Counted from the whole stretch's first letter, positions 1 through 33,662 are shown. The stretch: 63,523 nucleotides of DNA, filler included, from Nanobdellati archaeon (GCA_013152815.1; 5 parts of 5 records of this genome joined end to end with filler, not necessarily neighbours in it), one strand, 5' to 3'. Made by a program: numbers and translations. The notes: generated by a model from the sequence alone, not told the origin.

Positions 1-40
1 AGCGAAGTGCAACGAGCGAACCGTTAAATTCCTGTTATAT
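1..40 (-). repeat. Partial attC-like recombination site (runs off window start)
   Basis: Minus strand reads ATATAAC-aggaatt..., the same AAC-agg start as the sites at 32660-32684 and 33551-33577. Positions 30-78 closely resemble 33567-33614. Confidence 0.6.
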
Positions 41-70
41 TCGTCGGAGCGAAGCGGAGACCGAGGGATA

Positions 71-155
71 GTGCAACGGTTTTTTGCGAAGTCCTGAGCA
101 TAGCGAAGGATTTGGGAGAGGCCTGCAAGGCCGAACCGCAAAACTGCTGTTAGTT
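71..155 (-). repeat. attC-like hairpin site
   Basis: Minus strand AACTAAC-agcagTTTTGCG...CGCAAAAaacc-GTTGCAC: AAC/GTT cores with an internal inverted repeat and inner hairpins. Confidence 0.65.
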
Positions 156-775: not shown

Positions 776-1615
776 ATGAAGACTCTCTTGGTTGTCCTTC
801 TTATGGACACGTCCAAGAAACCTTTTCGGGAGTATCTCCTGGAACGGATGGAGCAGGAACTCAGGCTCAGAGGCTGCAGCGAGAAGACCATGAGATCCTA
901 TCGCTATCATGTTACTGATTTCCTGGCGTTTGCCGATGGTATCAGGCTTTCCAGGAAGAAGGACTATCTGCTCTTTCTCCTTGACAGAGGCCAGGCATCT
1001 TCGACCGTACGGGTTGCCAGCGCAGCCATAGACTTCCTGGCGTTGCATGTCCTGGGGACGCAGACAGAGAAGATCCCTCTGCCGAAGAAGCCGAAACGTC
1101 TGCCGAGGGTACTTACCAGGGAACAGCTCAGGCAGATGGTCAGGTTGACAACCAACCCGAAACACGGGCTCATGCTGGAACTGTTCTACGGCAGCGGTCT
1201 GCGGCTGAGCGAGCTCATCACCCTCAGGCAAGAGGACATCGATACTGAAAGGAGGCTCATCCATGTCAGGCAGGGCAAGGGAAAGAAGGATAGAGTGACC
1301 ATCATCGCAAAGACGACCCTCGATAAGCTTCCTGCATTCGGAAAGGGTTTGTTGCTCAAGGGAAGGAACGAAGGATACAGCTATCGCAGCATACAGCAGG
1401 CAGTCGCAGATGCAGGTCTACGGGCAGGCATCCCTTTTCATGTCACGCCGCATATGCTCAGGCACAGCTTCGCGACCCACCTGCTGGAACAGGGGACCGA
1501 TCTCCGGACCATCCAAAACTTGCTCGGCCACAGCGATGTCCGGACGACACAGATCTACACCCATGTCTCGGCAAGAAAGCTCCAGCACATACCCGCACCC
1601 TTAGATGAGCTCTAG
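776..1615 (+). CDS. Tyrosine recombinase, XerA/XerD-like (candidate cassette integrase); alternative start 803
   Basis: Motifs GSGLRLSE (R), GKGKKDR (K), HMLRHSFATHLLE (HxxR), LLGH, TTQIYTHV (Y). N-terminal SAM-like segment ELRLRGCSEKTMRSY. Confidence 0.95.
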   Translation: MKTLLVVLLMDTSKKPFREYLLERMEQELRLRGCSEKTMRSYRYHVTDFLAFADGIRLSRKKDYLLFLLDRGQASSTVRVASAAIDFLALHVLGTQTEKIPLPKKPKRLPRVLTREQLRQMVRLTTNPKHGLMLELFYGSGLRLSELITLRQEDIDTERRLIHVRQGKGKKDRVTIIAKTTLDKLPAFGKGLLLKGRNEGYSYRSIQQAVADAGLRAGIPFHVTPHMLRHSFATHLLEQGTDLRTIQNLLGHSDVRTTQIYTHVSARKLQHIPAPLDEL

Positions 1616-3575: not shown

Positions 3576-4562
3576 ATGGATCTTCAGGATATCGGAGAAT
3601 TTGAGCTCATCCGCAGGATCAGGAGACAGGTGAAGAACAGCAGACAGGTGCTCCAGGGCATAGGTGACGATGCCGCGGTCCTCCGCCATGATAAGAAGTC
3701 ACATCTCCTCCTGACGACCGACGCTCTTGTGGAGAACGTCCATTTCCGCAGGGACTGGTCCTCTCCAGAACAGATCGGCAGGAAAGCCGTCGAAGTCAAT
3801 GTCTCTGACATCGCTGCCATGGGCGGCCTGCCGACCGCAGCCCTGGTCTCGCTCATCCTTCCGGCATCTACTGATCCGCTCTTCGTCGAGAGGATCTACC
3901 GGGGCATCAGGAGAAGATGCAGGCATTACCGCATCGACCTGGTGGGCGGCAACATCAGCAGAGGGAAAGAGCTTAGCATCAGCATCACCCTGCTCGGCAG
4001 GGTGGAGAGAGACCGGCTCTGTCTCCGTTCCGGTGCAGGGCCTGATGAACTGGTCTGTGTCACCGGAAAGCTCGGGAAAGGTCAGGCCGGCCTCATGCTC
4101 TGCTCGTCAGGGGATATGGACAAGGATGCGGATAAGGCAGGGCCTTTCCTCCGGCCGCGTGCACGTCTGCAGGAAGGAAGGGCCATCGCCCGCTTCGCCA
4201 CGTCGTTGATCGACATCAGCGACGGTCTCGTCGGAGAGCTCCACCGGCTCATGGACGCTTCAGGGGTCGGTTTTCTCATCGATGCTGCCACGCTTCCGCT
4301 CCATCCGCTCACCAAGCTGGTGGACGATGATCCTCGTCGGCTGGCGCTTTTCGGCGGCGATGAGCTGGAACTGCTCTTCACCATCAGGAAAAAGGACCTC
4401 AGGCGGCTGAAGGTGCGATCCACCATCATCGGCCGGACGACCAGGGAAAGACGCATCTCGGTCCAGGGATGGCCAGGGCAGGAAGACGCGAGGACAGTCA
4501 TGGACAGAGAAGGCTATGACCACTTCCTCAGAAGACCGCGCTCCTCTCGCACTAGGAGCTGA
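3576..4562 (+). CDS. thiL: Thiamine-monophosphate kinase
   Basis: GEFELI, GIGDDAA, NVSDIAAMGG, IDISDGL, GGDELELLF. Confidence 0.95.
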   Translation: MDLQDIGEFELIRRIRRQVKNSRQVLQGIGDDAAVLRHDKKSHLLLTTDALVENVHFRRDWSSPEQIGRKAVEVNVSDIAAMGGLPTAALVSLILPASTDPLFVERIYRGIRRRCRHYRIDLVGGNISRGKELSISITLLGRVERDRLCLRSGAGPDELVCVTGKLGKGQAGLMLCSSGDMDKDADKAGPFLRPRARLQEGRAIARFATSLIDISDGLVGELHRLMDASGVGFLIDAATLPLHPLTKLVDDDPRRLALFGGDELELLFTIRKKDLRRLKVRSTIIGRTTRERRISVQGWPGQEDARTVMDREGYDHFLRRPRSSRTRS

Positions 4563-7029
4563 TCCTGGAGAGATGGTCCTGTTTCTCGATACGGAGCACA
4601 TGGTCGACAAAGGTCTCGATCTTGGGTTCATGGGAGACGATGATGATCTGCCTGTTCGGCAGCTGGTCCAGGACGTCCCTGATCTTGTCCAGCTGGCCCG
4701 TGGAGAACCCGTCGGTGGGCTCGTCGAGGATGATGAGGTCTTTGGTCTCTATCTGAGAGATGAAATCGTTGATGACCTTGTTGAGCGAGAGCCGATATGC
4801 CAAGGACAGGGCGGTCTTCTCTCCGCCTGAAAGATGCTCGAAGTCTATCTCGTAGCCGTTCTGCTCGACCACCGGCGAGAACGTGTCGTCCAGCCTGACA
4901 AGCAGCGCTTCGTCGTCCACCAGCAGGGAGAACCACTCGGTGAAGAGCTCTGAGAATTCTGCATGGATGGAAAGAAGCACCTGACGCTCGATGGTGGAGA
5001 GCAGGTCGATGAAGAACCCTTTCAGCCAATGATGGATCCCCTTCTGGGACGTGAGCATCTGCTTCTCCTGCTCCTTGATCTTCACCTCTGCCGAAAGGAC
5101 ATGGTATTGTTCTTCTGCCGCCCTGATGGATGCCTCCATGCCCGCCGACCTGATCTGCCGGTCGGTAAGTTCCTTCTTGACATTCTCCCTGGTCTCTTTC
5201 GTTTCCCTCACCCGTCGGTCCTGGGTCCGGGCCTGTTCCACCACCGCCTCGGTCTGTTCCAGCGTCTCTTTCATACGTCGCTCTTCCTGCTCATCCTTCT
5301 CCTTCTGCTCAAGGAGCTGGCTAAGCTCCTCTTTCTTGTCCATGAGGAAGGTCTCGAACTGTCGCTGTTCAGCTTTTCTCTTCTCGTCCTCGAGCGACTG
5401 CCGCAGCTCAGCCTCCAGCTGCCTTACCCTCTCCTTCTCCAGGGTGTTGTCCTTCTTCCGCAGCCCGGCCAATCCTGCCTTCGCCTTCTCCTGTTCTGCC
5501 AGGTTCCTTTTCTGTCGGTCCCTCGCTTCCTCTGCCTTCGCCCTCGCTTCCTCCAGTCCCTGTATCCTTGTGGTGAGCATCCCTTTCTGCCTCTCGCTCT
5601 CTGCCGCCTTCTGGAGCGCTGCTGCTATCTGCTCTGCCTCGTTCTGGAGCTTTTCCTGTTCCCTCTGCAGGTCTGCTATCCTTCCTTTCTTCTGGTCGAC
5701 GATGGCCTGCTGACCGGTGATGATCCTTGCCCGATGCTCATGGGGAACTTCCTGAAGGCAGAGTGGACAGCTGGTGAGCGCCTTCATCTTGCCGATGAGT
5801 CCGGTGCTCTGGTCCTGGGTCGCTTTCTCCTGGCCGAGCTGCTTCGCCAGCGTCTCCAGCTCCTGCCGGTTGTTCTTCTGCTTCCTTTCCAGGGCTGCCC
5901 GCTTCGCCACCGTCGTCTCAAGCAGTCTGAGAGCCTCCCTGTCCAGGGCTGTCTTCTTCCTGATCTCCTCGATGCTCTGCGCTTCTTTCTTCAGCCGGAT
6001 CGCGTTCTCCTGCAGGTTGTGCAGGCGTTCGGTCATGATCCTGATCCCGGTCTCCTGTTCCACGATGCTTTGTTCAGCATCCTTGATGTCCTTCCGGATG
6101 GCCTCAGCTTCCCTCGTCTTTCCTGTCTCTTGGGACACTGCCTTGATCTTTGCTTCCAGGGCCTTGACCTGGGCCTTTCCCTGCATGATCTTCTGCGATG
6201 TCCTGTCAAGCTGTTCGGTCAGGAACTGGCGCTTTGAGATCAGGATGGTGCGCTGCTCCACCTGTTTCCTCATGCGTTCCTGCTCTGCTTCGGCAGCTTT
6301 CACCTGTGCATCGAGGAGCTCTTTCCTCTTCTTGATGACGGCTATCTGCTCCTGCAGCGCTTCCCGTTCGCTCTTCTGGTCGGCCACGCGCTCACTGATA
6401 TCCTTGAGCTGGGCCTTCTTCTCGTCCAGATCTGCCACCTTTCCGCTGAGCTCCTGTATGCTGTTCCGGAGCCCTTTGACATAGCGTTCAGCATTTTCCT
6501 TCATCAGCGAATAGCGGTCGATCTGCAGGATCTTGCGCAGGGTCTCGAGCCTTGTATCAGGCGCATCGAGGAGTATCTGTTTCATGGCCTCCTGCGGCGT
6601 ATAGACAGAGTAGCGGTAGACCAGTGAGATCGCTTTGTCCTTGGCCTCCACCGGATAGCCCATCTCCTGGAGGAGCCAGGCCCGGAGTTCCTCAGGCGTC
6701 CCTTCCTTCTTCCTGTTGTCGACCTGGATGTACCCCGCGTCCTGTTTGATGCTGTCCCTGGTCCTCCTGAGGGAACGTTTGATGATGATCTCCTTGTCCT
6801 TGATGGTGAGACAGAGCTCGACGCTTCCCCTCTCTGTGCCGTTCCTCAGAAGGGCTGCATAGGTGAGGCTTGATCCCCTGATGCCGAAGAGGGCAAGTTC
6901 GATGGCCATGAGGATGGTGCTCTTCCCTGCGCCTATATCACCGCTCAGGAGGAGCGATCCGTCAGGGAAATCTATCCGGGCAGAAGCATAGCTGCGGATG
7001 TTCTCGATCCTCAACCAGTGGAGATGCAT
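4552..7029 (-). CDS. rad50: Rad50/SbcC-family SMC-like ATPase
   Basis: Walker A GDIGAGKS, long coiled coils, central CPLC zinc hook, LSGGE signature, LDEPT Walker B. Confidence 0.88.
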   Translation of the reverse strand: MHLHWLRIENIRSYASARIDFPDGSLLLSGDIGAGKSTILMAIELALFGIRGSSLTYAALLRNGTERGSVELCLTIKDKEIIIKRSLRRTRDSIKQDAGYIQVDNRKKEGTPEELRAWLLQEMGYPVEAKDKAISLVYRYSVYTPQEAMKQILLDAPDTRLETLRKILQIDRYSLMKENAERYVKGLRNSIQELSGKVADLDEKKAQLKDISERVADQKSEREALQEQIAVIKKRKELLDAQVKAAEAEQERMRKQVEQRTILISKRQFLTEQLDRTSQKIMQGKAQVKALEAKIKAVSQETGKTREAEAIRKDIKDAEQSIVEQETGIRIMTERLHNLQENAIRLKKEAQSIEEIRKKTALDREALRLLETTVAKRAALERKQKNNRQELETLAKQLGQEKATQDQSTGLIGKMKALTSCPLCLQEVPHEHRARIITGQQAIVDQKKGRIADLQREQEKLQNEAEQIAAALQKAAESERQKGMLTTRIQGLEEARAKAEEARDRQKRNLAEQEKAKAGLAGLRKKDNTLEKERVRQLEAELRQSLEDEKRKAEQRQFETFLMDKKEELSQLLEQKEKDEQEERRMKETLEQTEAVVEQARTQDRRVRETKETRENVKKELTDRQIRSAGMEASIRAAEEQYHVLSAEVKIKEQEKQMLTSQKGIHHWLKGFFIDLLSTIERQVLLSIHAEFSELFTEWFSLLVDDEALLVRLDDTFSPVVEQNGYEIDFEHLSGGEKTALSLAYRLSLNKVINDFISQIETKDLIILDEPTDGFSTGQLDKIRDVLDQLPNRQIIIVSHEPKIETFVDHVLRIEKQDHLSRISS

Positions 7030-11578: not shown

Positions 11579-11702
11579 GCCGGGATAACTCAGTCCGGTT
11601 AGAGTGCCACGCTCATAAAGCTTGAGCAATGAGGTCTGGAAAGGCCGATGATTGATTCGGCATGCACCGTGGATGTCGGGGGTTCAAATCCCCTTCCCGG
11701 CA
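11579..11702 (+). tRNA. tRNA-Met(CAT), elongator type, with about 49-nt anticodon-loop intron (about 11618-11666)
   Basis: Acceptor GCCGGGA/TCCCGGC-A, stem CCACG/CGTGG, CTCATA loop, GGTTCAAATCC; TTATAAA upstream. Confidence 0.88.
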
Positions 11703-17272: not shown

Positions 17273-19501
17273 TTAGTGATCCGGTCTTTTTATCACCAGC
17301 TTCAAAGCGTCAAAGGCACAGGCATCCACACAGGTCTTGCAACCCGTACAGGCATCGGTGATTATTTCAGGTATTTGGTGTCCGGTTTCCTCTTTTGTCC
17401 GGTGTATGGAAAAACATCCATAATCAGTATTGTAGCAATCTCCAGGACAATTACCTGTTACGACACGAGTGCTTGAACGAGGACAGGCATCTGCATTGAA
17501 CTCAGCCACCACCTCACCATAAACGTTCTTATTGCTCAAGAATCCACCTTCATGGATAAGGCCTTTTATCTTACTGTCCAGATAGTCAATCAAGACCTGA
17601 CTCTCGTGCTCTGAAGTGACGCTGATCACGGCATCTGAGACCTTCTTTTGCAGTTCAATCTCATTGAGCGGAACATCTCCTTTCAGTTTATCTATCAGTG
17701 TAGATACAAGAGGATTGGTTGAAGAAGTGTCAAGGATACGCTTTATGTAATCAGGAGGTTCTCCGAACGCATTGAACCGTAGATTGTATTTCCCTACAAA
17801 ACTTGAAATAGCTTTCTTTTTCTCCTGTGAGAAAGATGCGTATGATTTTTTGAAGTCCTTGTTCTTGAGTTGAGAATACAGCACATATGCTGTTTTTATC
17901 TCTGTCAGACGTCTGTTATACGCTTTGAAAAAATCAGCAAGTTTATGCGAGATAACCCGCGGACCAATCAATACAGAACCGAGTTCAATCCCATCAGCAC
18001 CGATTGCCCGCCTATCAAGAACATTATCAACAGCATTCTCGACATTGAAGAATTCACGGATTATCCGTTCTGTATTTGAGAGTCCTTGATCGCTTACCCG
18101 TTGTTCAATCCATCTCTTGAATTTAGCTTTCTCTTTTTCCATAACCCAGGGGTACATATTCTCATCATAATCTGATTTCAGTGCTGTTTCAAGAATATAA
18201 GACAGATCCTCTTTACTCTTGATAGGATACTCCCTTTTTAGCCGTTGATAGGATTTTCTGTACTTATCTTCTCGCACAAGGTCCATAGCGACTCCGCCAC
18301 TCGCGAGAAGCTTAAGCTTAACAGTAGGATAAACACGAGATAAGGAGAGTCTTGCCATCTCACGGATGGGATTCCCCGCGGTCTGCATCTCCTTGCTCTT
18401 GAAGATATAGGGGGGTGCATCATCCCTGAAATACTCCCAGCGAGGGGACGTCTTATGGGTGTTTATGAGGGTCATTCCGACAAAGCCTGCTTCATCACAG
18501 GTCTTTGCCAGCTCGATAATCTCGTCAGAATAACTGAATTTCCCGATAAGGCCCAGCCCGTATTGTTTTGCGATTATGTTGAGCGCATAGAGGCTTCGGT
18601 GTAAAGCAGATTTTCTTAAGTACCCTGTATCAACAATATCAATGCCTCTTCGTCCTATGCTTTTTCCTGTCCGAAAATCGTCTTTAACGTACTCATCGAT
18701 ATTTGTTGCTCGTTTTTTCAGAAAGGCGTCATCATATTGTGGCATTTGCCTATCGAACAGTTTTTTATTCCACAAATGCACGGGCTCCCAGTCGATTCTT
18801 TCAGTAGACCTTGCAAGATAGCGAAGATTGAGCTCCAGATTCATTCCTTTAATGAATCCTTCTGATTCCAAACGCTTCTTCCATTTGCCCACCGTTGAAA
18901 GCAATTGGTGCCAGACAAGCAAGTCTGCCATTCCATACAACTGGGTCTTTATGAACAGCTCCTTTGTTGCTGGATCAAAAGGAGGATTACCGAACTTGTT
19001 CACGAGACGGGAATAGGCATTATTATCCACAATACGATTGAAGATGCTTCCGTCAAGAATCAAAGAGAGGTTATCTTGGAAAGTCTTGAACGCTTCGTGC
19101 GAATCAAAATGCAGGGCCGCAGCATCAAATATGCGCTTTGAAGTAAGATTGGGGATGATCGGAACACCTTGCTTGATAGCTGCAGTCATATTATCGATGG
19201 AAGTCTCTAAGTCAAACATCTCTTTGGCAGTGGAGCCTGCATTGAAATTGCCGGTGTGACTGTCTGTGGAAAGCCCTCGTTGACTATTAACTGCGTCAGT
19301 GGTGCTTTCCTCACTTATGGTCTTTGTTATGATTGCGCCCAACCCTGCCTTCTTCAGCTGTAAGAATTGCTCAAGAGTCTTTCCCACAGGAGATGAGGCT
19401 GCAAAGAAGTAATTAGGATAGGTCACTTCCCCGAGGGTCATCTGAGGAAGATAGTATGTGTTATATCCTTCTAGTGCGTTACGCCATTTTTCTTCAACCA
19501 T
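17273..19501 (-). CDS. Divergent dihydropyrimidine/dihydroorotate dehydrogenase-like (PreA-like) protein with C-terminal 4Fe-4S domain and large insertions
   Basis: FAASSP, GAIITKT, LELNL, LINT, ASGGV, GADGIELGS, CTGCKTCVDACAFDAL. AT-rich relative to flanks. Confidence 0.72.
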   Translation of the reverse strand: MVEEKWRNALEGYNTYYLPQMTLGEVTYPNYFFAASSPVGKTLEQFLQLKKAGLGAIITKTISEESTTDAVNSQRGLSTDSHTGNFNAGSTAKEMFDLETSIDNMTAAIKQGVPIIPNLTSKRIFDAAALHFDSHEAFKTFQDNLSLILDGSIFNRIVDNNAYSRLVNKFGNPPFDPATKELFIKTQLYGMADLLVWHQLLSTVGKWKKRLESEGFIKGMNLELNLRYLARSTERIDWEPVHLWNKKLFDRQMPQYDDAFLKKRATNIDEYVKDDFRTGKSIGRRGIDIVDTGYLRKSALHRSLYALNIIAKQYGLGLIGKFSYSDEIIELAKTCDEAGFVGMTLINTHKTSPRWEYFRDDAPPYIFKSKEMQTAGNPIREMARLSLSRVYPTVKLKLLASGGVAMDLVREDKYRKSYQRLKREYPIKSKEDLSYILETALKSDYDENMYPWVMEKEKAKFKRWIEQRVSDQGLSNTERIIREFFNVENAVDNVLDRRAIGADGIELGSVLIGPRVISHKLADFFKAYNRRLTEIKTAYVLYSQLKNKDFKKSYASFSQEKKKAISSFVGKYNLRFNAFGEPPDYIKRILDTSSTNPLVSTLIDKLKGDVPLNEIELQKKVSDAVISVTSEHESQVLIDYLDSKIKGLIHEGGFLSNKNVYGEVVAEFNADACPRSSTRVVTGNCPGDCYNTDYGCFSIHRTKEETGHQIPEIITDACTGCKTCVDACAFDALKLVIKRPDH

Positions 19502-19542
19502 GATATATCACATCATCAAGTTTATCCTCTGACAAAACAGAT

Positions 19543-20451
19543 TCATAGGGTATCCCGATGGATCCTTCGATATCCCAATGCCACCTTTTTTCGGACTAAG
19601 GCAGGGGTATCTGATAGAGACACGGGAATCTTCAGATCATCACGATACATGCATGGATCCAAGGTGCCACGTGCGCTAAGACGAAGATATTCTCCTTCTC
19701 CGCAATTAACACGGTAGTCACATCCCTCACATTTCTCATGATACCTCTTTGGTTTCACAAGGTTATCTGAGAACAGATCGACTATGTGTTCATAAGGAAC
19801 AGATGTTTTCTCAACACCCTTCTCAGTGGACATCCAATCCATAAGATGCAACTCATAGCCTTCCTTATCTGCGAAAGCGATAATACGAGGAATCTCTTCA
19901 AGGTTCAATTGATTAACCACCGTATTTATGACTATATTCCTGAAACCAAGAGACTTCAAGGTTGCAAGTCCAGCAAAGACATCGTCTAGAGCATCAAGAT
20001 GAGTGATCTTCTTATAGACCTCTCGATCAAGACTATGCAAGGAAATGTTAACACCATCAAGACCCGCCATCACTAAGTCCTCAGCATTATGAGCAAGATA
20101 GGTTCCGTTCGTGACAATACCCACGATGCTTTCAGCAGACTTTCTTTTGATCTCGCGAACATACTCTGCAAGAAGAGGATGAGAACCAGGCTCTCCGCCG
20201 GTGAATTTGATCTTGTTCTTCCCAATCTCCAAAGAAGCACTTATTGCTTTCCACATGACCTCTTCATCCAAAACCTTTACTCGGCTTGCATCATAGCCTT
20301 CATTATGACAGAAAAAACAAGATTCATTGCACCATTCAAGAAGTTGGACTCTCAAGTAACCTGGCAAGGATTCGAAAGAAAGATATCCTTCAAGTATCTC
20401 TTCCATGCGCAATGCAGGGATCGTTTCTTCTTGCATGTCGTTTACCCTCAA
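19543..20451 (-). CDS. MoaA-like radical SAM protein
   Basis: CNESCFFCHNEG, KFTGGEP, TNG, NISLHSL, CEGC...LRLSARGTLDPC. Confidence 0.85.
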   Translation of the reverse strand: MRVNDMQEETIPALRMEEILEGYLSFESLPGYLRVQLLEWCNESCFFCHNEGYDASRVKVLDEEVMWKAISASLEIGKNKIKFTGGEPGSHPLLAEYVREIKRKSAESIVGIVTNGTYLAHNAEDLVMAGLDGVNISLHSLDREVYKKITHLDALDDVFAGLATLKSLGFRNIVINTVVNQLNLEEIPRIIAFADKEGYELHLMDWMSTEKGVEKTSVPYEHIVDLFSDNLVKPKRYHEKCEGCDYRVNCGEGEYLRLSARGTLDPCMYRDDLKIPVSLSDTPALVRKKVALGYRRIHRDTL

Positions 20452-20945
20452 GAGATTGATTGTATTGTATAGGTGTTATTATTAAAAACAACAGTATCTC
20501 CTTCTTTTTTCTGCATAAACTGTTGTCCGATAGGTGACATCGGAGTCAAGACTCTTACAAGATAATCTTCAATAGGGATTATTTCTCCACCTTGGGCAGG
20601 CATCATCAAAAAATGTCCGGATTGATGATCTAACTCGTATTGGATCAATGCGCCGACATCAACCACATTACAGGACGCTTTATGCGTATACTGTTCAATC
20701 TCTGATATGTCTTTACCCAGGTCATACAATCTTCTTGATTGTTCATTTGCTTCCCAACTTCCTTCAATCTTATGGGTGCTATGCCTGGAGACATTCGGAC
20801 CTTCTGCATCCCGAACCCGATTAATAATATTTCCAATTTCATCTTCTAAAGCATGATAATCATCTTGAAGCAAAGTTATGAACGCGCGAAGCACCAACTC
20901 CTTGTCAAGACGGTTATTCTCAGAGGAAACATCACTCATAATCAT
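20448..20945 (-). CDS. GreA/GreB-family-like protein
   Basis: N-terminal coiled coil; VDVGALI, GGE, LTPMSPIGQQFMQKKEGD. Confidence 0.75.
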   Translation of the reverse strand: MIMSDVSSENNRLDKELVLRAFITLLQDDYHALEDEIGNIINRVRDAEGPNVSRHSTHKIEGSWEANEQSRRLYDLGKDISEIEQYTHKASCNVVDVGALIQYELDHQSGHFLMMPAQGGEIIPIEDYLVRVLTPMSPIGQQFMQKKEGDTVVFNNNTYTIQSIS

Positions 20946-21490: not shown

Positions 21491-21659
21491 GGGGCTGCGG
21501 AGATTCCCACCAAAGGGATGCACCCTTTTGAAACCCGCGCACAATGCAGCAGGATTTCCNNNNNNNNNNNNNNGATTCCCACCAAAGGGATGCACCCTTT
21601 TGAAACCCGCGCACAATGCAGCAGGATTTCCAATCCTGCAAATGGGGCTGCGGAGATTC
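21491..21659. repeat. Duplicated tRNA-Pro 3' end (GGGGCTGCGGAGATTC) with repeated unit spanning an N gap
   Basis: 16-bp copies at 21491-21506 and 21644-21659; unit GATTCCCACCAAAGGG...GGATTTCC on both sides of gap 21560-21573. Confidence 0.75.
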
Positions 21660-30199: not shown

Positions 30200-30391
30200 G
30201 ATGAACACCTCCTCATCATGATGGGGATCAAGTTCATTATAAATGTTGCCCTAGGGCGGGCTCTGTAGAAAGTAGGGCCGGCATCCTTCGCGGGGCCTCA
30301 TCAGAAATCAAGCATGAAGTGCCATCATGGAAAAATCACCAGAGAGGCACCGAGTTACTTTTATATAGTAGTTAATAATCCCGGATGCATC

Positions 30392-31140
30392 ATGGTTCAG
30401 GAGAGAATTGATCCACATTTAGACGAAACGATTATGCGTTTATCTAGGTTTGCGCACATTAAACGTTATCAAAAAGCAGCTGAGAAGTAGCTGAGATAAT
30501 TGGAACAGGAAATCGGGTCTTGGATGCTGGTTGTGGTTATGGGTATGGTTCAGAAATTTTAGCTGAAAGGGATACAAGTGTTATCGGAGTGGACATATCA
30601 CCTGAGGCGATCGAATATGCCAATAAACATTATAATCGGAGAAACATAACTTTTCATCAAGGAGATATAACTTATTTTGAATTCTCTGAATTCGGCCAAT
30701 TTGATGCCATTACTTTCTTTGAAGTGTTGGAACATGTAAGTAAACCATCAGCAACATTACAAAATCTTAGAAAAGCCCTAAAAGATTCGGGGAAGCTGAT
30801 CATTTCAGTACCGAACGCTAAGAATGCTTCTAAAAATAATGAACATCATATAAACTCATATGCTCCCGAAGATCTCGAAGAGCTTCTGATTTCAAATGGT
30901 TTTGAAGTGAAACAAAAATTTGGACAATATCCGTTACTGGGTGCTTTAGCTGAGATAGCAAGAACATTTACCGGCTATAATTCTTGTACTGATAAAGAGT
31001 CTGGTAGAGTTCCAAGGATCGTGGATTCAATTCCCGGATTGCCAGAAATTTTTTCAAATCTTTATGAGTCCGATTTTGCCGTATCAACAGGAAGAACGAC
31101 CTATTTTGTGGCCGGACCAGAAGAAAAGCAAGTCCCTTGA
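30392..31140 (+). pseudogene. Class I SAM-dependent methyltransferase, frameshifted by an 11-nt insertion
   Basis: MVQERID...HIKRY ends at TAG 30488-30490. Removing AGTAGCTGAGA restores AAEIIGTGNRVLDAGCGYG. Confidence 0.75.
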
Positions 31141-31204
31141 GTCAAGAAAAGTCGTATATCGAGAACAAAGTCCCTTAAGATACAAGCATAGAAAGTCTGC
31201 AAGA

Positions 31205-31615
31205 TTACAACGGTTTAGTTCCTAAATCTTCTGCAAATCTTAGCAAATATCCATCCGGGTCCTGAACAAGAAATTCCTTATTTCCAAGAAGTTTATTGTC
31301 CCGCCTATACCACATTTCTTTAGATTCAACAAAAATCGGATAATTATTATTTCTTAGATTATCTAAAATTGGTTTGATCTTATCAACTTCTATTTGAAGA
31401 TTGATTCCTCTTCCAAAAGGTTGTTCTAATCTGCCCGCACTCCAATGATTATTTACTTCTTCGATCATTAATTGGCTTCCTTGAAAAGAGAGCATCGCAA
31501 ATTCGGATTCATTCCTCTTATATTCAATTTTGAATCCGAGAATCTCTGTATAAAATTTAAGGCTCTTTTCAAAATTTGATACACTTAATTCAGGAATTAA
31601 TTTGTTGAATCTCAT
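31205..31615 (-). CDS. VOC/glyoxalase-bleomycin resistance family protein (cassette)
   Basis: LIPELSV, SLKFY..LGF, PFGRGINLQIEV, VQDPDGYLLRF. Confidence 0.92.
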   Translation of the reverse strand: MRFNKLIPELSVSNFEKSLKFYTEILGFKIEYKRNESEFAMLSFQGSQLMIEEVNNHWSAGRLEQPFGRGINLQIEVDKIKPILDNLRNNNYPIFVESKEMWYRRDNKLLGNKEFLVQDPDGYLLRFAEDLGTKPL

Positions 31616-31689
31616 AATAATATTGAATAGTTGCCAAGCATATATAAATTTTGCCGACTTCTTCACAAGAATAGACTTTTCTTGATTTC

Positions 31690-31714
31690 ATATGACATCA
31701 GGAATCCTTGATAG
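31690..31714 (-). repeat. Degenerate cassette core site
   Basis: Plus strand ATATGACATCAGGAATCCTTGATAG resembles ACATAACATCAGATTCCTGTTATAC (32660-32684). Confidence 0.5.
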
Positions 31715-32031
31715 GTAAGGAGAGTGCAACCCGACCGACCGGAAAGATCTCTGATTTTGTAGGGACAGTCGTAAACGCTCATCATGCGTATCAATAGAAA
31801 AGGACACATTAATTTTTGTTTAAATCCTTCTTGAAAGAGCTATTAACACCAACTTTGACACATTAAGTTCTCCTCCACGAACGATGGTGAGTGAGAGCTG
31901 AGAAATTAATTTGGGAAAATCCTGCAAGGATTTTCTCTTTAACCGCTGTCTGGGTGAGCGAAGCGAAAGTCTGCAAGACGACCCCAAGAATTTTCGTAGA
32001 AAATTCGCAGAGTTTCTGAGGGTGCCGCACA

Positions 32032-32592
32032 TCACTCCTTTAGTTTAAACATGATCGTTGTAGAAATTACGAAGATGAGTGATACAAGATAAAATATTAA
32101 TTCAAAGCCAAATTTCCCTGCTAGAAAACCTCCTGCAAAAATGGCGATTGCTTCTGCAAATCCCACATAGGCATCATATCTTCCGATATCAGCTCCTCTT
32201 CTTTGTTTTTCAGTTATATCTGCCAAATATGCGGATTCAGAAGTTTCAAAAACAGAGATAATCAATCCGCTAAATATCTGAAGAAGATATAATTGCCAGA
32301 TTGAACCGATAATTGTATATAAAAAGACTATTATTGCAGAAGCATATCCTCCGATAATCAGAAGAGGTTTTCGTCCTATCGAATCTGAATATTTTCCTGC
32401 AACAAGAGAGATCAATGCGCCAGAAAAAACAACCAATCCTACGGCGATTCCAAAATTTTCTATACTACCACCCATATCATTGATAAAAATTAAATAGAAG
32501 GGTCCAAACAATCCAAATGCAAGAGCCATTAATGAACTGGAAAAAGTGAAGATCCTGAGATTTCTCTTGTTGATTTTATTGATAAGAGCCAT
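32032..32592 (-). CDS. Half-size (about 6-TM) MFS transporter (cassette)
   Basis: Motif A GKYSDSIGRK; AYLADIT...RG; only 186 aa. Confidence 0.85.
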   Translation of the reverse strand: MALINKINKRNLRIFTFSSSLMALAFGLFGPFYLIFINDMGGSIENFGIAVGLVVFSGALISLVAGKYSDSIGRKPLLIIGGYASAIIVFLYTIIGSIWQLYLLQIFSGLIISVFETSESAYLADITEKQRRGADIGRYDAYVGFAEAIAIFAGGFLAGKFGFELIFYLVSLIFVISTTIMFKLKE

Positions 32593-32659
32593 ATTAACAT
32601 AAAGAAGGTCTGATTGCTTAAATATCTAACTGCCTCTTAGGCGCCCTCGGAAAGCATAG

Positions 32660-32684
32660 ACATAACATCAGATTCCTGTTATAC
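32660..32684 (-). repeat. Minimal cassette junction site (25 bp)
   Basis: Minus strand GTATAAC-aggaatctgat-GTTATGT. Confidence 0.7.
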
Positions 32685-32758
32685 GATGGTGAGCATAACT
32701 TAGTGAAGCGAAAGCGCAACGTCCCCTTGAGTCTGGTCTTGGGCGTCAAATAGAATTA

Positions 32759-33487
32759 TTATTTCAAGGTTAGTTCAAAAAGGTATTCATGAGCCATCCA
32801 TTTTTTGCCGACTCTAAATATTTTTATTTTGCCAATTTCATTTAAATCTTTATACCAATCAATATTATCTTCCACAAATTCCTTGGTGGGTCCTGTATCA
32901 AAAGCAACAAGTCGAGCATTATAATTATCGATTATCTTTCGTATAGTTTGGGCATAATTGGTAACAGTATAAACAATTATGTAAATTCTTGACTTGTTGT
33001 GCATATATTGTTTTGCTAAATCAAGAAATTTTAAAACTTGCTTGTTTCCATCTGGACCACCATCAAAACTCTTGGTTAATTGTTCACCTATTGCTTCTTG
33101 ATAACTTTTGTGAACAATTTCTTGTGGAAGATTAACAACAATAACATCAAACTTCTTTTTGAGATTTGCAAAATATTCTCCTTGTTGGAAATCAATGCTG
33201 ACATTATTTCTCACTGCGTTTTTCTTTGCTAAATTTAAAGCGTCTTTATCATTGTCTGTAGCAGAAACTCTCCCACCTAATTTGGCAGCGAGAATACCTA
33301 AAAATCCTGGACCTGTCCCAATATCAATAATAGATTCTTCGGCATTGATTCTCATGTTTTCGGCAAGAAATGATCCATGAGGCGAAGGAGGAAATATGTG
33401 TTGATTAATCTCTAACTCGAACTTAATATTTTGAATATCATATTTCCGAAGTTCTGGCTTTTGAACAAAATGTAATATTCTAGTCAT
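32759..33487 (-). CDS. HemK/PrmC-like SAM methyltransferase (cassette)
   Basis: IDIGTGPG, NLPQ (NPPY-like), DGGPDG. Confidence 0.88.
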   Translation of the reverse strand: MTRILHFVQKPELRKYDIQNIKFELEINQHIFPPSPHGSFLAENMRINAEESIIDIGTGPGFLGILAAKLGGRVSATDNDKDALNLAKKNAVRNNVSIDFQQGEYFANLKKKFDVIVVNLPQEIVHKSYQEAIGEQLTKSFDGGPDGNKQVLKFLDLAKQYMHNKSRIYIIVYTVTNYAQTIRKIIDNYNARLVAFDTGPTKEFVEDNIDWYKDLNEIGKIKIFRVGKKWMAHEYLFELTLK

Positions 33488-33550
33488 AATAACATTGAAA
33501 TAATCTAAATTTAATAAAGTTTGCTTTCATATAGCCCAAGACCAAATGTC

Positions 33551-33577
33551 GTATAACATCGGAAATTCCTGTTAGTT
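33551..33577 (-). repeat. Minimal cassette junction site (27 bp)
   Basis: Minus strand AACTAAC-aggaatttccgat-GTTATAC. Confidence 0.7.
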
Positions 33578-33662
33578 ACGTCGGAGCGTAGAGGAGACCG
33601 AGGATTGGTGCAGCGTTCCGTAGCGAAGCGGAGGAAAGATTCAAGTAAAAAAACGGCGTATC

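Follow-up and report, generated by a model that had tools for sequence, protein, structure and literature searches.

Short junctions of an archaeal gene-cassette array as likely collapsed remains of long hairpin recombination sites

At one end of a contig from a Nanobdellati archaeon (GCA_013152815.1), three genes are separated by junctions of only 25-27 bases. Are these junctions recombination sites in their own right, or what is left of larger ones? The window that we analysed, 63,523 nucleotides in all, consists of several contigs of this 1.49-Mb genome (53% GC, 90.8% complete) joined by N spacers, and the array occupies the last 2.5 kb of contig C4 (window positions 11513-33662). A sequence-only reading of the window had proposed that the genes form a cassette array and that the junctions are a new minimal type of site.

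Short junctions at cassette boundaries

The two short minus-strand junctions of that reading and their degenerate third copy are all present (Table 1). The pattern TAACAGN{3,30}GATGTTA matches twice in the window against 0.02 matches expected, and none of 100 shuffles reached two. The genes are AT-rich and co-oriented as described: the methyltransferase, MFS and VOC units have GC contents of 0.33, 0.38 and 0.32, compared with 0.53 for the genome, and all lie on the minus strand. The methyltransferase unit starts with GTTATAC and ends with GTATAAC, as read, the latter being the R'' of site 2 and complementary to the unit start. Two further points held in part. Each gene has its own TATA-like word 24-26 nt before the ATG, picked out by eye, and on sequence grounds these words are candidate promoters; a sigma-70 scan gave chance-level results with a model that does not cover archaeal promoters. 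The internal stem that was said to be lacking is reduced rather than absent, in that the inner (L) arm and loop are missing but a mini-stem of 2-4 bp is retained. No recognisable site was found at the far end of the VOC unit. Beyond the array, on the opposite strand (window 30314-31140, plus), lies a SAM methyltransferase gene that is seemingly split, with a frame of 58 aa continuing into one of 206 aa; the stop codon of this gene adjoins the VOC-unit inverted repeat, at the place where the VOC leader and site are missing.

Table 1. Features of the array on C4 and of the recombinase region on C1 (window positions)
Feature	Position	Strand	Basis or remark
3' leader of upstream cassette, truncated at contig end, small hairpins	33578-33662	−	79% identity over 66 nt to leader at window 26-91; C4 ends at 33662
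Short junction site 1, AACTAAC-AGGAATTTCCGAT-GTTATAC	33551-33577	−	Sequence
Site 1 layout R''-AG-GAATTTCC-GAT-R', predicted crossover G|TT	33557/33556	−	Unit-end complementarity
Methyltransferase-unit inverted repeat, 5' arm, 11 bp	33534-33544	−	Pairs with 32734-32744
TATA-like word, 24 nt 5' of methyltransferase ATG	33511-33518	−	Sequence only
SAM methyltransferase gene, HemK/MTS-like, 242 aa	32759-33487	−	Pfam
Methyltransferase-unit inverted repeat, 3' arm	32734-32744	−	Followed by leader, 32685-32733
Short junction site 2, GTATAAC-AGGAATCTGAT-GTTATGT	32660-32684	−	G304 homologue of MFS unit shares start base
MFS-unit inverted repeat, 5' arm	32640-32653	−	12/14 match to 32013-32026, 14/14 in G304 homologue; by eye
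TATA-like word, 25 nt 5' of MFS ATG	32617-32625	−	Sequence only
Half-size MFS transporter gene, 186 aa	32032-32592	−	Pfam; equal length in G304
Decayed long hairpin site, 5' arm present, 3' arm gone after ACTT	31865-31954 (approx.)	−	By eye, against listed long sites
Degenerate short site 3, CCTATC-AAGGATTCCTGAT-GTCATAT	31690-31715	−	G314 VOC-unit homology (L382) begins within site
VOC-unit inverted repeat, 5' arm, 12 bp	31674-31685	−	Pairs with 31142-31153
TATA-like word, 26 nt 5' of VOC ATG	31641-31648	−	Sequence only
VOC/glyoxalase-family gene	31205-31615	−	Pfam
VOC-unit inverted repeat, 3' arm	31142-31153	−	No terminal site after it
XerA-like tyrosine recombinase gene, 279 aa, likely integrase	776-1615	+	Contig C1
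Intact long hairpin site, first one divergent from recombinase gene	452-572	−	Contig C1; about −25 kcal/mol
Second long site (3' end damaged) and start of third (truncated at contig end)	1-155	−	Contig C1

We compared the junctions with site loci drawn from genomes of the order and from metagenome contigs, rows that are partly non-independent owing to related genomes and shared samples. Among 108 units lying between consecutive sites, 55 have all three variable end bases complementary, compared with 10.3 after shuffling, whereas the same test within a junction gives 6 of 108 (these counts, like the length counts below, still include locus L217, called long but in fact made up of two short sites, and reclassified ahead of the polarity count). 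The excess is also seen when both flanking sites are short (39 of 80 units; 7.6 shuffled). Complementarity within units rather than within junctions places the exchange at G|TT. Thus, the short sites mark true cassette boundaries.

The motif also recurs across the order. A loose pattern matched 178 of 401 genomes (289 matches), many of these by chance, as a reversed-pattern control gave about 74 in a hand count; a stricter pattern gave 22 matches in 18 of 346 genomes, compared with 2 in the control. In this genome the short site recurs three further times, and a profile scan of the genome returned 5 sites, with none in two shuffles, although it missed the low-scoring site 2. A short-pattern scan of all species genomes yielded, among the matches listed, 1 of 120 loci that scored as a site, and none of 24 loci on viral contigs did so.

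Homologous units are found among different neighbours. The homologue of the MFS unit in G304, a genome of another family (86% nucleotide identity), has the same start base, behind a long site, and terminates in a short site with a matching end, and the VOC homologue in G314 starts within the counterpart of site 3. Clear sites at both ends were seen only in these two genomes among 19 MFS and VOC homologue loci, with G280 and G271 sharing the start as judged by eye (locus L387 of G370, an unpublished genome, is included in this pool and in those for the site-length and docking-site comparisons). Other unpublished genomes contribute to genome-wide tallies alone, such as those of the loose and stricter patterns, and none of the named examples depends on them. 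One unit, 99.8% identical over 410 nt, is preceded by different short sites in two contigs. Methyltransferase homologues occur in 3 of 400 genomes, one in G066 being 78% identical, and none has detected sites, so the mobility of the methyltransferase unit rests on its own ends. Since homologous units are bounded at G|TT and have different neighbours elsewhere, gene order is not fixed and the motif lies at the variable-gene boundaries, as had been proposed.

Three observations concern individual junctions and cassettes. The MFS homologue of G280 (L378) starts behind AACTAA-CAAAGA-TTA, a junction with a 6-nt spacer that is unlike the usual short site. A cassette with an antisense gene (L235:4672-6028) shares 99.8% identity with its counterpart in L337 over one half and about 83% over the other; the leaders and short sites differ and R'' is identical, and leaders and sites were seemingly swapped between these homologous cassettes. 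Inside the L337 unit is a 440-aa ORF whose N-terminus we take, by eye, to resemble that of a group II intron reverse transcriptase.

The units share a further feature at their ends. A cassette-specific inverted repeat of 10-19 bp links both ends of 64 of 101 units (2.5 in shuffles) and begins exactly 4 nt after R' in 44 of the 64, giving the unit anatomy R'-NCAA-inverted repeat-promoter-gene-inverted repeat-leader-R''. In the window, the methyltransferase and VOC units carry such repeats and the MFS unit has an imperfect one, which the exact-match script left unscored. These cassette-specific repeats are a clue to how cassettes are formed.

A XerA-like recombinase and a dif-like dock

The recombinase that, judging from position, probably serves the sites is encoded on contig C1. 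Long sites do lie near it, as the sequence-only reading had it, but it is on a different contig from the short-site array. Comparison of contig ends found no overlap between C1 and C4, nor between recombinase contigs and short-site contigs in four other genomes, and no contig was found to carry both a recombinase gene and a short site. Because the end of C4 is, beside the start of C33, the only AT-rich open contig end with marks of cassettes (by eye), the C4 terminal array may represent the distal portion of the array on C1. On C1, the 310-bp unit before the second and third long sites has the form GTTAGTT...AACTAAC, and the first site beside the recombinase is a long hairpin with a degenerate R'' instead of a docking site.

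A PF00589 search found this one tyrosine recombinase in the genome. Its nearest named homologues are from Woesearchaeota/Nanoarchaeota, which points to a DPANN host within that group, and the closest solved structure is that of P. abyssi XerA. It has 23 residues where VchIntIA has 72, and therefore lacks the IntI-specific (I2) insertion; its scores lie below the cut-offs of TIGR02249 (200 bits in two pieces; cut-off 265) and NF040815 (207.6 bits; cut-off 220). The catalytic R-K-H-R-H-Y residues are invariant in the recombinase alignment. In an unrooted tree of 28 of the 30 proteins (two were left out), the enzyme falls in a 17-member branch with support of 100/99, in which 13 rows have a site or a contig end close upstream. 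The branch is separate from a 7-member XerA-like group, for which no site was found within 1.5 kb; at L028, outside the main branch, the recombinase is also adjoined by a docking (attI-like) site. In a tblastn search over 352 loci, the recombinase was found only in the 30 loci chosen for carrying one.

A docking motif, TAA-6nt-TTA, lies 100-330 nt from the gene in 43 of 66 recombinase loci, compared with 9 on the other strand. It is mostly followed by CAAT and is directed away from the recombinase gene. Following the crossover is an 11-nt arm that agrees with the P. abyssi dif arm (PMC2958812) at a mean of 8.2 of 11 positions, a figure that includes the TTA and CAAT that belong to the site detector. 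About 3 kb from the recombinase gene, a Rad50/SbcC-like ATPase is encoded (window 4552-7029, minus), a candidate partner for a hairpin nuclease.

These components resemble an integron in many respects: a divergent recombinase gene with a docking site beside it, a co-oriented array, cassette exchange at G|TT with R' and R'' complementary for each cassette, long sites folding into bulged hairpins, toxin-antitoxin cassettes and arrays away from the integrase. Unlike in integrons, the enzyme here has no IntI-specific insertion, the dock is the dif-like TAA-6-TTA, the dif-like 11-nt R' arm ends in CAAT, a 2-nt GA bulge is fixed, and the cassettes have their own TATA-like candidate promoters and cassette-specific terminal inverted repeats. 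Integron cassettes usually, though not always, lack promoters and are transcribed from Pc. Integron attC sites, which have R and L boxes, an unpaired spacer and extrahelical bases, measure 57-142 nt (PMC2727003), compared with mostly 20-30 nt off-platform here. The long sites have R and L arms with bulges of another geometry than attC, and the short sites, at 25-27 nt, have no L box. Thus, the system is integron-like and probably driven by a XerA-type enzyme, but it falls outside the integrons. The contrast with canonical attC drawn by the sequence-only reading is accordingly a loose one, as the one tyrosine recombinase detected here does not belong to the IntI type.

The likeness to archaeal XerA/dif extends from the closest structure to the docking arm and its 6-nt spacer (PMC2958812, PMC8371274). 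However, dif is single, distant from xerA and resolves dimers, whereas here the site adjoins the gene and probably takes up cassettes, and the enzymes form a branch separate from the XerA-like group. A close parallel is the CTX phage, in which XerCD, without an I2 domain, recombines a folded single strand with a dif-like duplex (PMC4792948). CTX hijacks the host XerCD for one phage; here a dedicated paralogue seems to serve many single-gene cassettes.

Might the short sites be double-stranded dif-type sites that, like pdif, bound modules for an ordinary Xer recombinase? Half-site activity is a property of tyrosine recombinases. The match of the 11-nt arm to dif and the XerA-like enzyme would both suit this idea. 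We consider it very improbable. The dif spacer is fixed at 6 nt between two 11-bp arms (PMC8371274, PMC2958812), whereas the short sites have 8-18 nt from TAA to TTA, with a mode of 14; the 6-nt form is limited to the docking site, all sites face the same direction, and the variable spacer largely refutes the reading.

Six archaeal IntIs with the IntI domain have been described, and Woesearchaeales genomes are listed with attC calls (Ghaly et al. 2022, PMC9668308); the supplement text contained no site sequences that we could find, so the CALINs of that study may include some of the long sites described here. Our literature search, mostly outside subscription journals, did not turn up a XerA-type cassette system or sites this short. 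The IntI-specific domain is generally held to be required by integrons, whose origin from Xer recombinases is under discussion (PMC4792948). In this order of small archaea, cassette capture apparently relies on a plain XerA-type enzyme together with a dif-like dock, an arrangement that would make the Xer-to-integron transition testable in vitro. Pipelines that require IntI or long attC sites would miss most such arrays.

Long and short sites compared

A long site has the layout R''-CA+4nt-L''-loop-ACTT-L'-4nt+GATG-R', with 7 nt each in L'' and L', and is about 85-185 nt in whole. We measured the inner length from AACA to GATGTT in 218 distinct sites, a sample enriched for short sites by design. 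It is 2-12 nt in 177 sites (mode 8, n = 87) and 68-167 nt in 41, and no intermediate lengths were found among the 218. The common short site corresponds to the two 4-nt stems of a long site joined together, with L''-loop-L' gone. The predicted mean folding energy is −2.0 kcal/mol for short and −24 kcal/mol for long sites. In one pair of cassettes that are 75% identical, with the same leader and stem type, the L241 member carries a long site and the L337 member a short one.

Contig breaks are frequent at these arrays, with 32 of the 66 recombinase loci ending within 400 nt, as would be expected if sequencing or assembly had skipped the hairpins and so created the short form. Such an artefact is hardly credible, given that identical short junctions occur in separately named contigs, that long and short sites alternate on one contig and do so with polarity, and that the short sites carry point mutations.

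The two classes differ in position. A hand count of the sites beside the recombinase gave 44 long ones, from 23 genomes, and none of the typical short kind; one atypical 12-nt call there looks like the end of a long site. Across 15 mixed arrays (one overlapping array was dropped), long precedes short in 72 of 79 pairs (p = 5e-5). Complete recombinase-linked arrays have long sites even at the far end.

Off the platform, this genome has closed ectopic islands with short sites only. In C11, a 2.37-kb AT-rich island lies inside the 3' end of a gene that we read by eye as deoxyhypusine synthase; it begins at a GAA-6-TTA look-alike, with a short site mid-island and a degenerate one at its end, and its removal in silico leaves a stop codon four codons later. 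We discarded an initial reading that placed a junction within the toxin-antitoxin unit of C11. C13 and C33, which overlap by 91 nt, hold a two-cassette island that starts at TAA-TTGATG-TTA and has two short sites. Among off-platform docking sites, the first cassette is already short-sited in 7 of 8, in loci that were found through a short site and with one call corrected. Cassettes in the ectopic islands of this genome include two toxin-antitoxin-like gene pairs (L001:4164-4671 and L002:74-559), one with a ParE-family match. In G101, a single-cassette island (L346:8411-9125) lies at a docking-like site with no adjacent recombinase gene, and a search of that genome with the recombinase alignment gave no match at 1e-75. 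An AT-rich island at about 3500-6000 of contig C5 of G000 has weak site-like words within apparent coding sequence and is probably not a cassette. IntI reportedly inserts cassettes off target at look-alike chromosomal sites (attG; 10.1101/2022.09.11.507474), which resembles these islands.

The sequences of the short sites fit a long precursor. Of the 177, 89 are identical to a microhomology deletion product of some sampled long site, and no deletion that keeps the TTAA core (4-6 nt of microhomology) was found among them. The longer short sites keep bases of the 5' arm in 14 cases and of the 3' arm in one (15 typed of 22 matches); in a second, overlapping pool, retention is of the 5' arm in 19 of 19. 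The sequence-only proposal of a new minimal site holds as far as the cassette boundary is concerned, but a derivative of the long site better explains the sequence of the short form, its place in arrays and its lack of representation next to the recombinase.

The opposite direction of change, in which the short site is ancestral and the inner arm is a small MITE-like mobile insert in the centre of the palindrome, is improbable in our view. It would explain why L''-loop-L', with its inverted ends, is precisely present or absent with no intermediate lengths. However, the newest, recombinase-proximal sites are long, stem type and L arm travel together, and the L arm completes a TAA-6-TTW geometry that resembles the docking site.

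Collapse of long sites and residual activity

The reading that we favour, and consider likely, is that the 25-27-base junctions are collapsed remains of long hairpin sites that fix cassettes in place. By analogy with integrons, in which the bottom strand recombines and replication resolves the product, and with the CTX phage, a XerA-type enzyme would recombine a folded long site with a dif-like dock. The predicted folding suggests that a cassette would enter as a folded single-stranded circle at the double-stranded dock TAA-6nt-TTA beside the recombinase, or at chromosomal look-alikes, and incoming cassettes would be inserted ahead of older ones. Over time the inner arm would be deleted, leaving one recombinase arm; with a single binding arm, excision is likely to be blocked. 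Long-site cassettes would be lost more often, and survival would enrich short sites in old and ectopic positions. The change from long to short would be a simple sequence switch that fixes useful or addictive genes.

The least certain step, which is speculative, is the loss of the arm. It may begin when an enzyme without IntI's protective domain cleaves abortively at the L arm, with host repair following; the fixed deletion end at the boundary between L' and spacer coincides with the predicted cut and suggests such cleavage. The L box of integron sites is shielded from IntI by the I2 domain together with extrahelical bases (PMC4792948). Alternatively, the arm may be lost through replication slippage, which from one strand could yield the same asymmetry, but the absence of TTAA-core deletions argues against simple slippage. 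We rejected, by reasoning, direct deletion by the recombinase between the halves of a long site, as this would leave a spacer of 6-8 nt and 14 is seen.

Several observations sit less easily with collapse. The short sites are not measurably more decayed than the long ones, with 1.04 compared with 0.80 mismatches over a 14-nt core (p = 0.27, in a test blunted by detection thresholds), which speaks against dead remnants. The near-identical unit is behind short sites in both contigs, so collapse would have to be fast. Platform arrays are long to their far end and ectopic first cassettes are short, so array age is not the whole story.

It is possible, though we think it rather unlikely, that the short sites are still active. 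They would then be working minimal sites for the XerA-type enzyme, single-arm hairpins aided by the terminal inverted repeat, serving at least as acceptors and mainly in off-platform insertion. Short sites are conserved about as well as long ones and share the same 8-nt inner length in 87 of 177 cases, arrays of 9-11 mostly short sites exist, and single-cassette ectopic islands end with a short site. Through its inverted repeat, the methyltransferase unit would fold at about −20 kcal/mol across its predicted circle junction, and in class 1 integrons delta-attI sites are active despite truncation (PMC12901181). Against activity are the lack of a typical short site beside the recombinase, the long-before-short polarity, the missing second binding arm, the variable length of the short sites, and the finding that, in a comparison of 200 sites, no near-identical cassettes share the same short 3' site and have different downstream neighbours.

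The truncated-attC and delta-attI cassettes of class 1 and 2 integrons have a shortened 3' site, with some less excisable and some active; they are described as exceptions, and delta-attI carries a fragment of attI (PMC12901181). Here, in contrast, both R boxes and the spacers are kept, one arm is lost near a fixed point, and the form is common across the order. The short sites keep the long-site spacers (CAG..CGATG) and not spacers of docking sites such as TAGATG or TAGGTG.

The most far-reaching form of the activity reading, which we put forward tentatively as a less probable alternative to collapse into inert remains, is a two-tier, IntI-independent capture system in Woesearchaeota. Long sites would load at the dif-like dock, and the recombinase would trim them to 25-nt single-arm hairpins that remain recombinogenic through the terminal inverted repeats. 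If true, no smaller natural cassette sites would be known to us, and the system would be a living model of the Xer-to-integron transition.

Other features of the window lie outside the array. An Rfam search of the window returned tRNAs only, one of them a 124-nt match at 11579-11702 (plus) that probably contains an intron. A 58-nt exact repeat flanks a short N gap (21502-21631) and is likely an assembly overlap. A block of lower GC (0.41-0.44; 17273-20945, minus) adjoins tRNA genes and encodes a 742-aa protein with a C-terminal 4Fe-4S motif, a radical SAM protein and a GreA/B-like protein.
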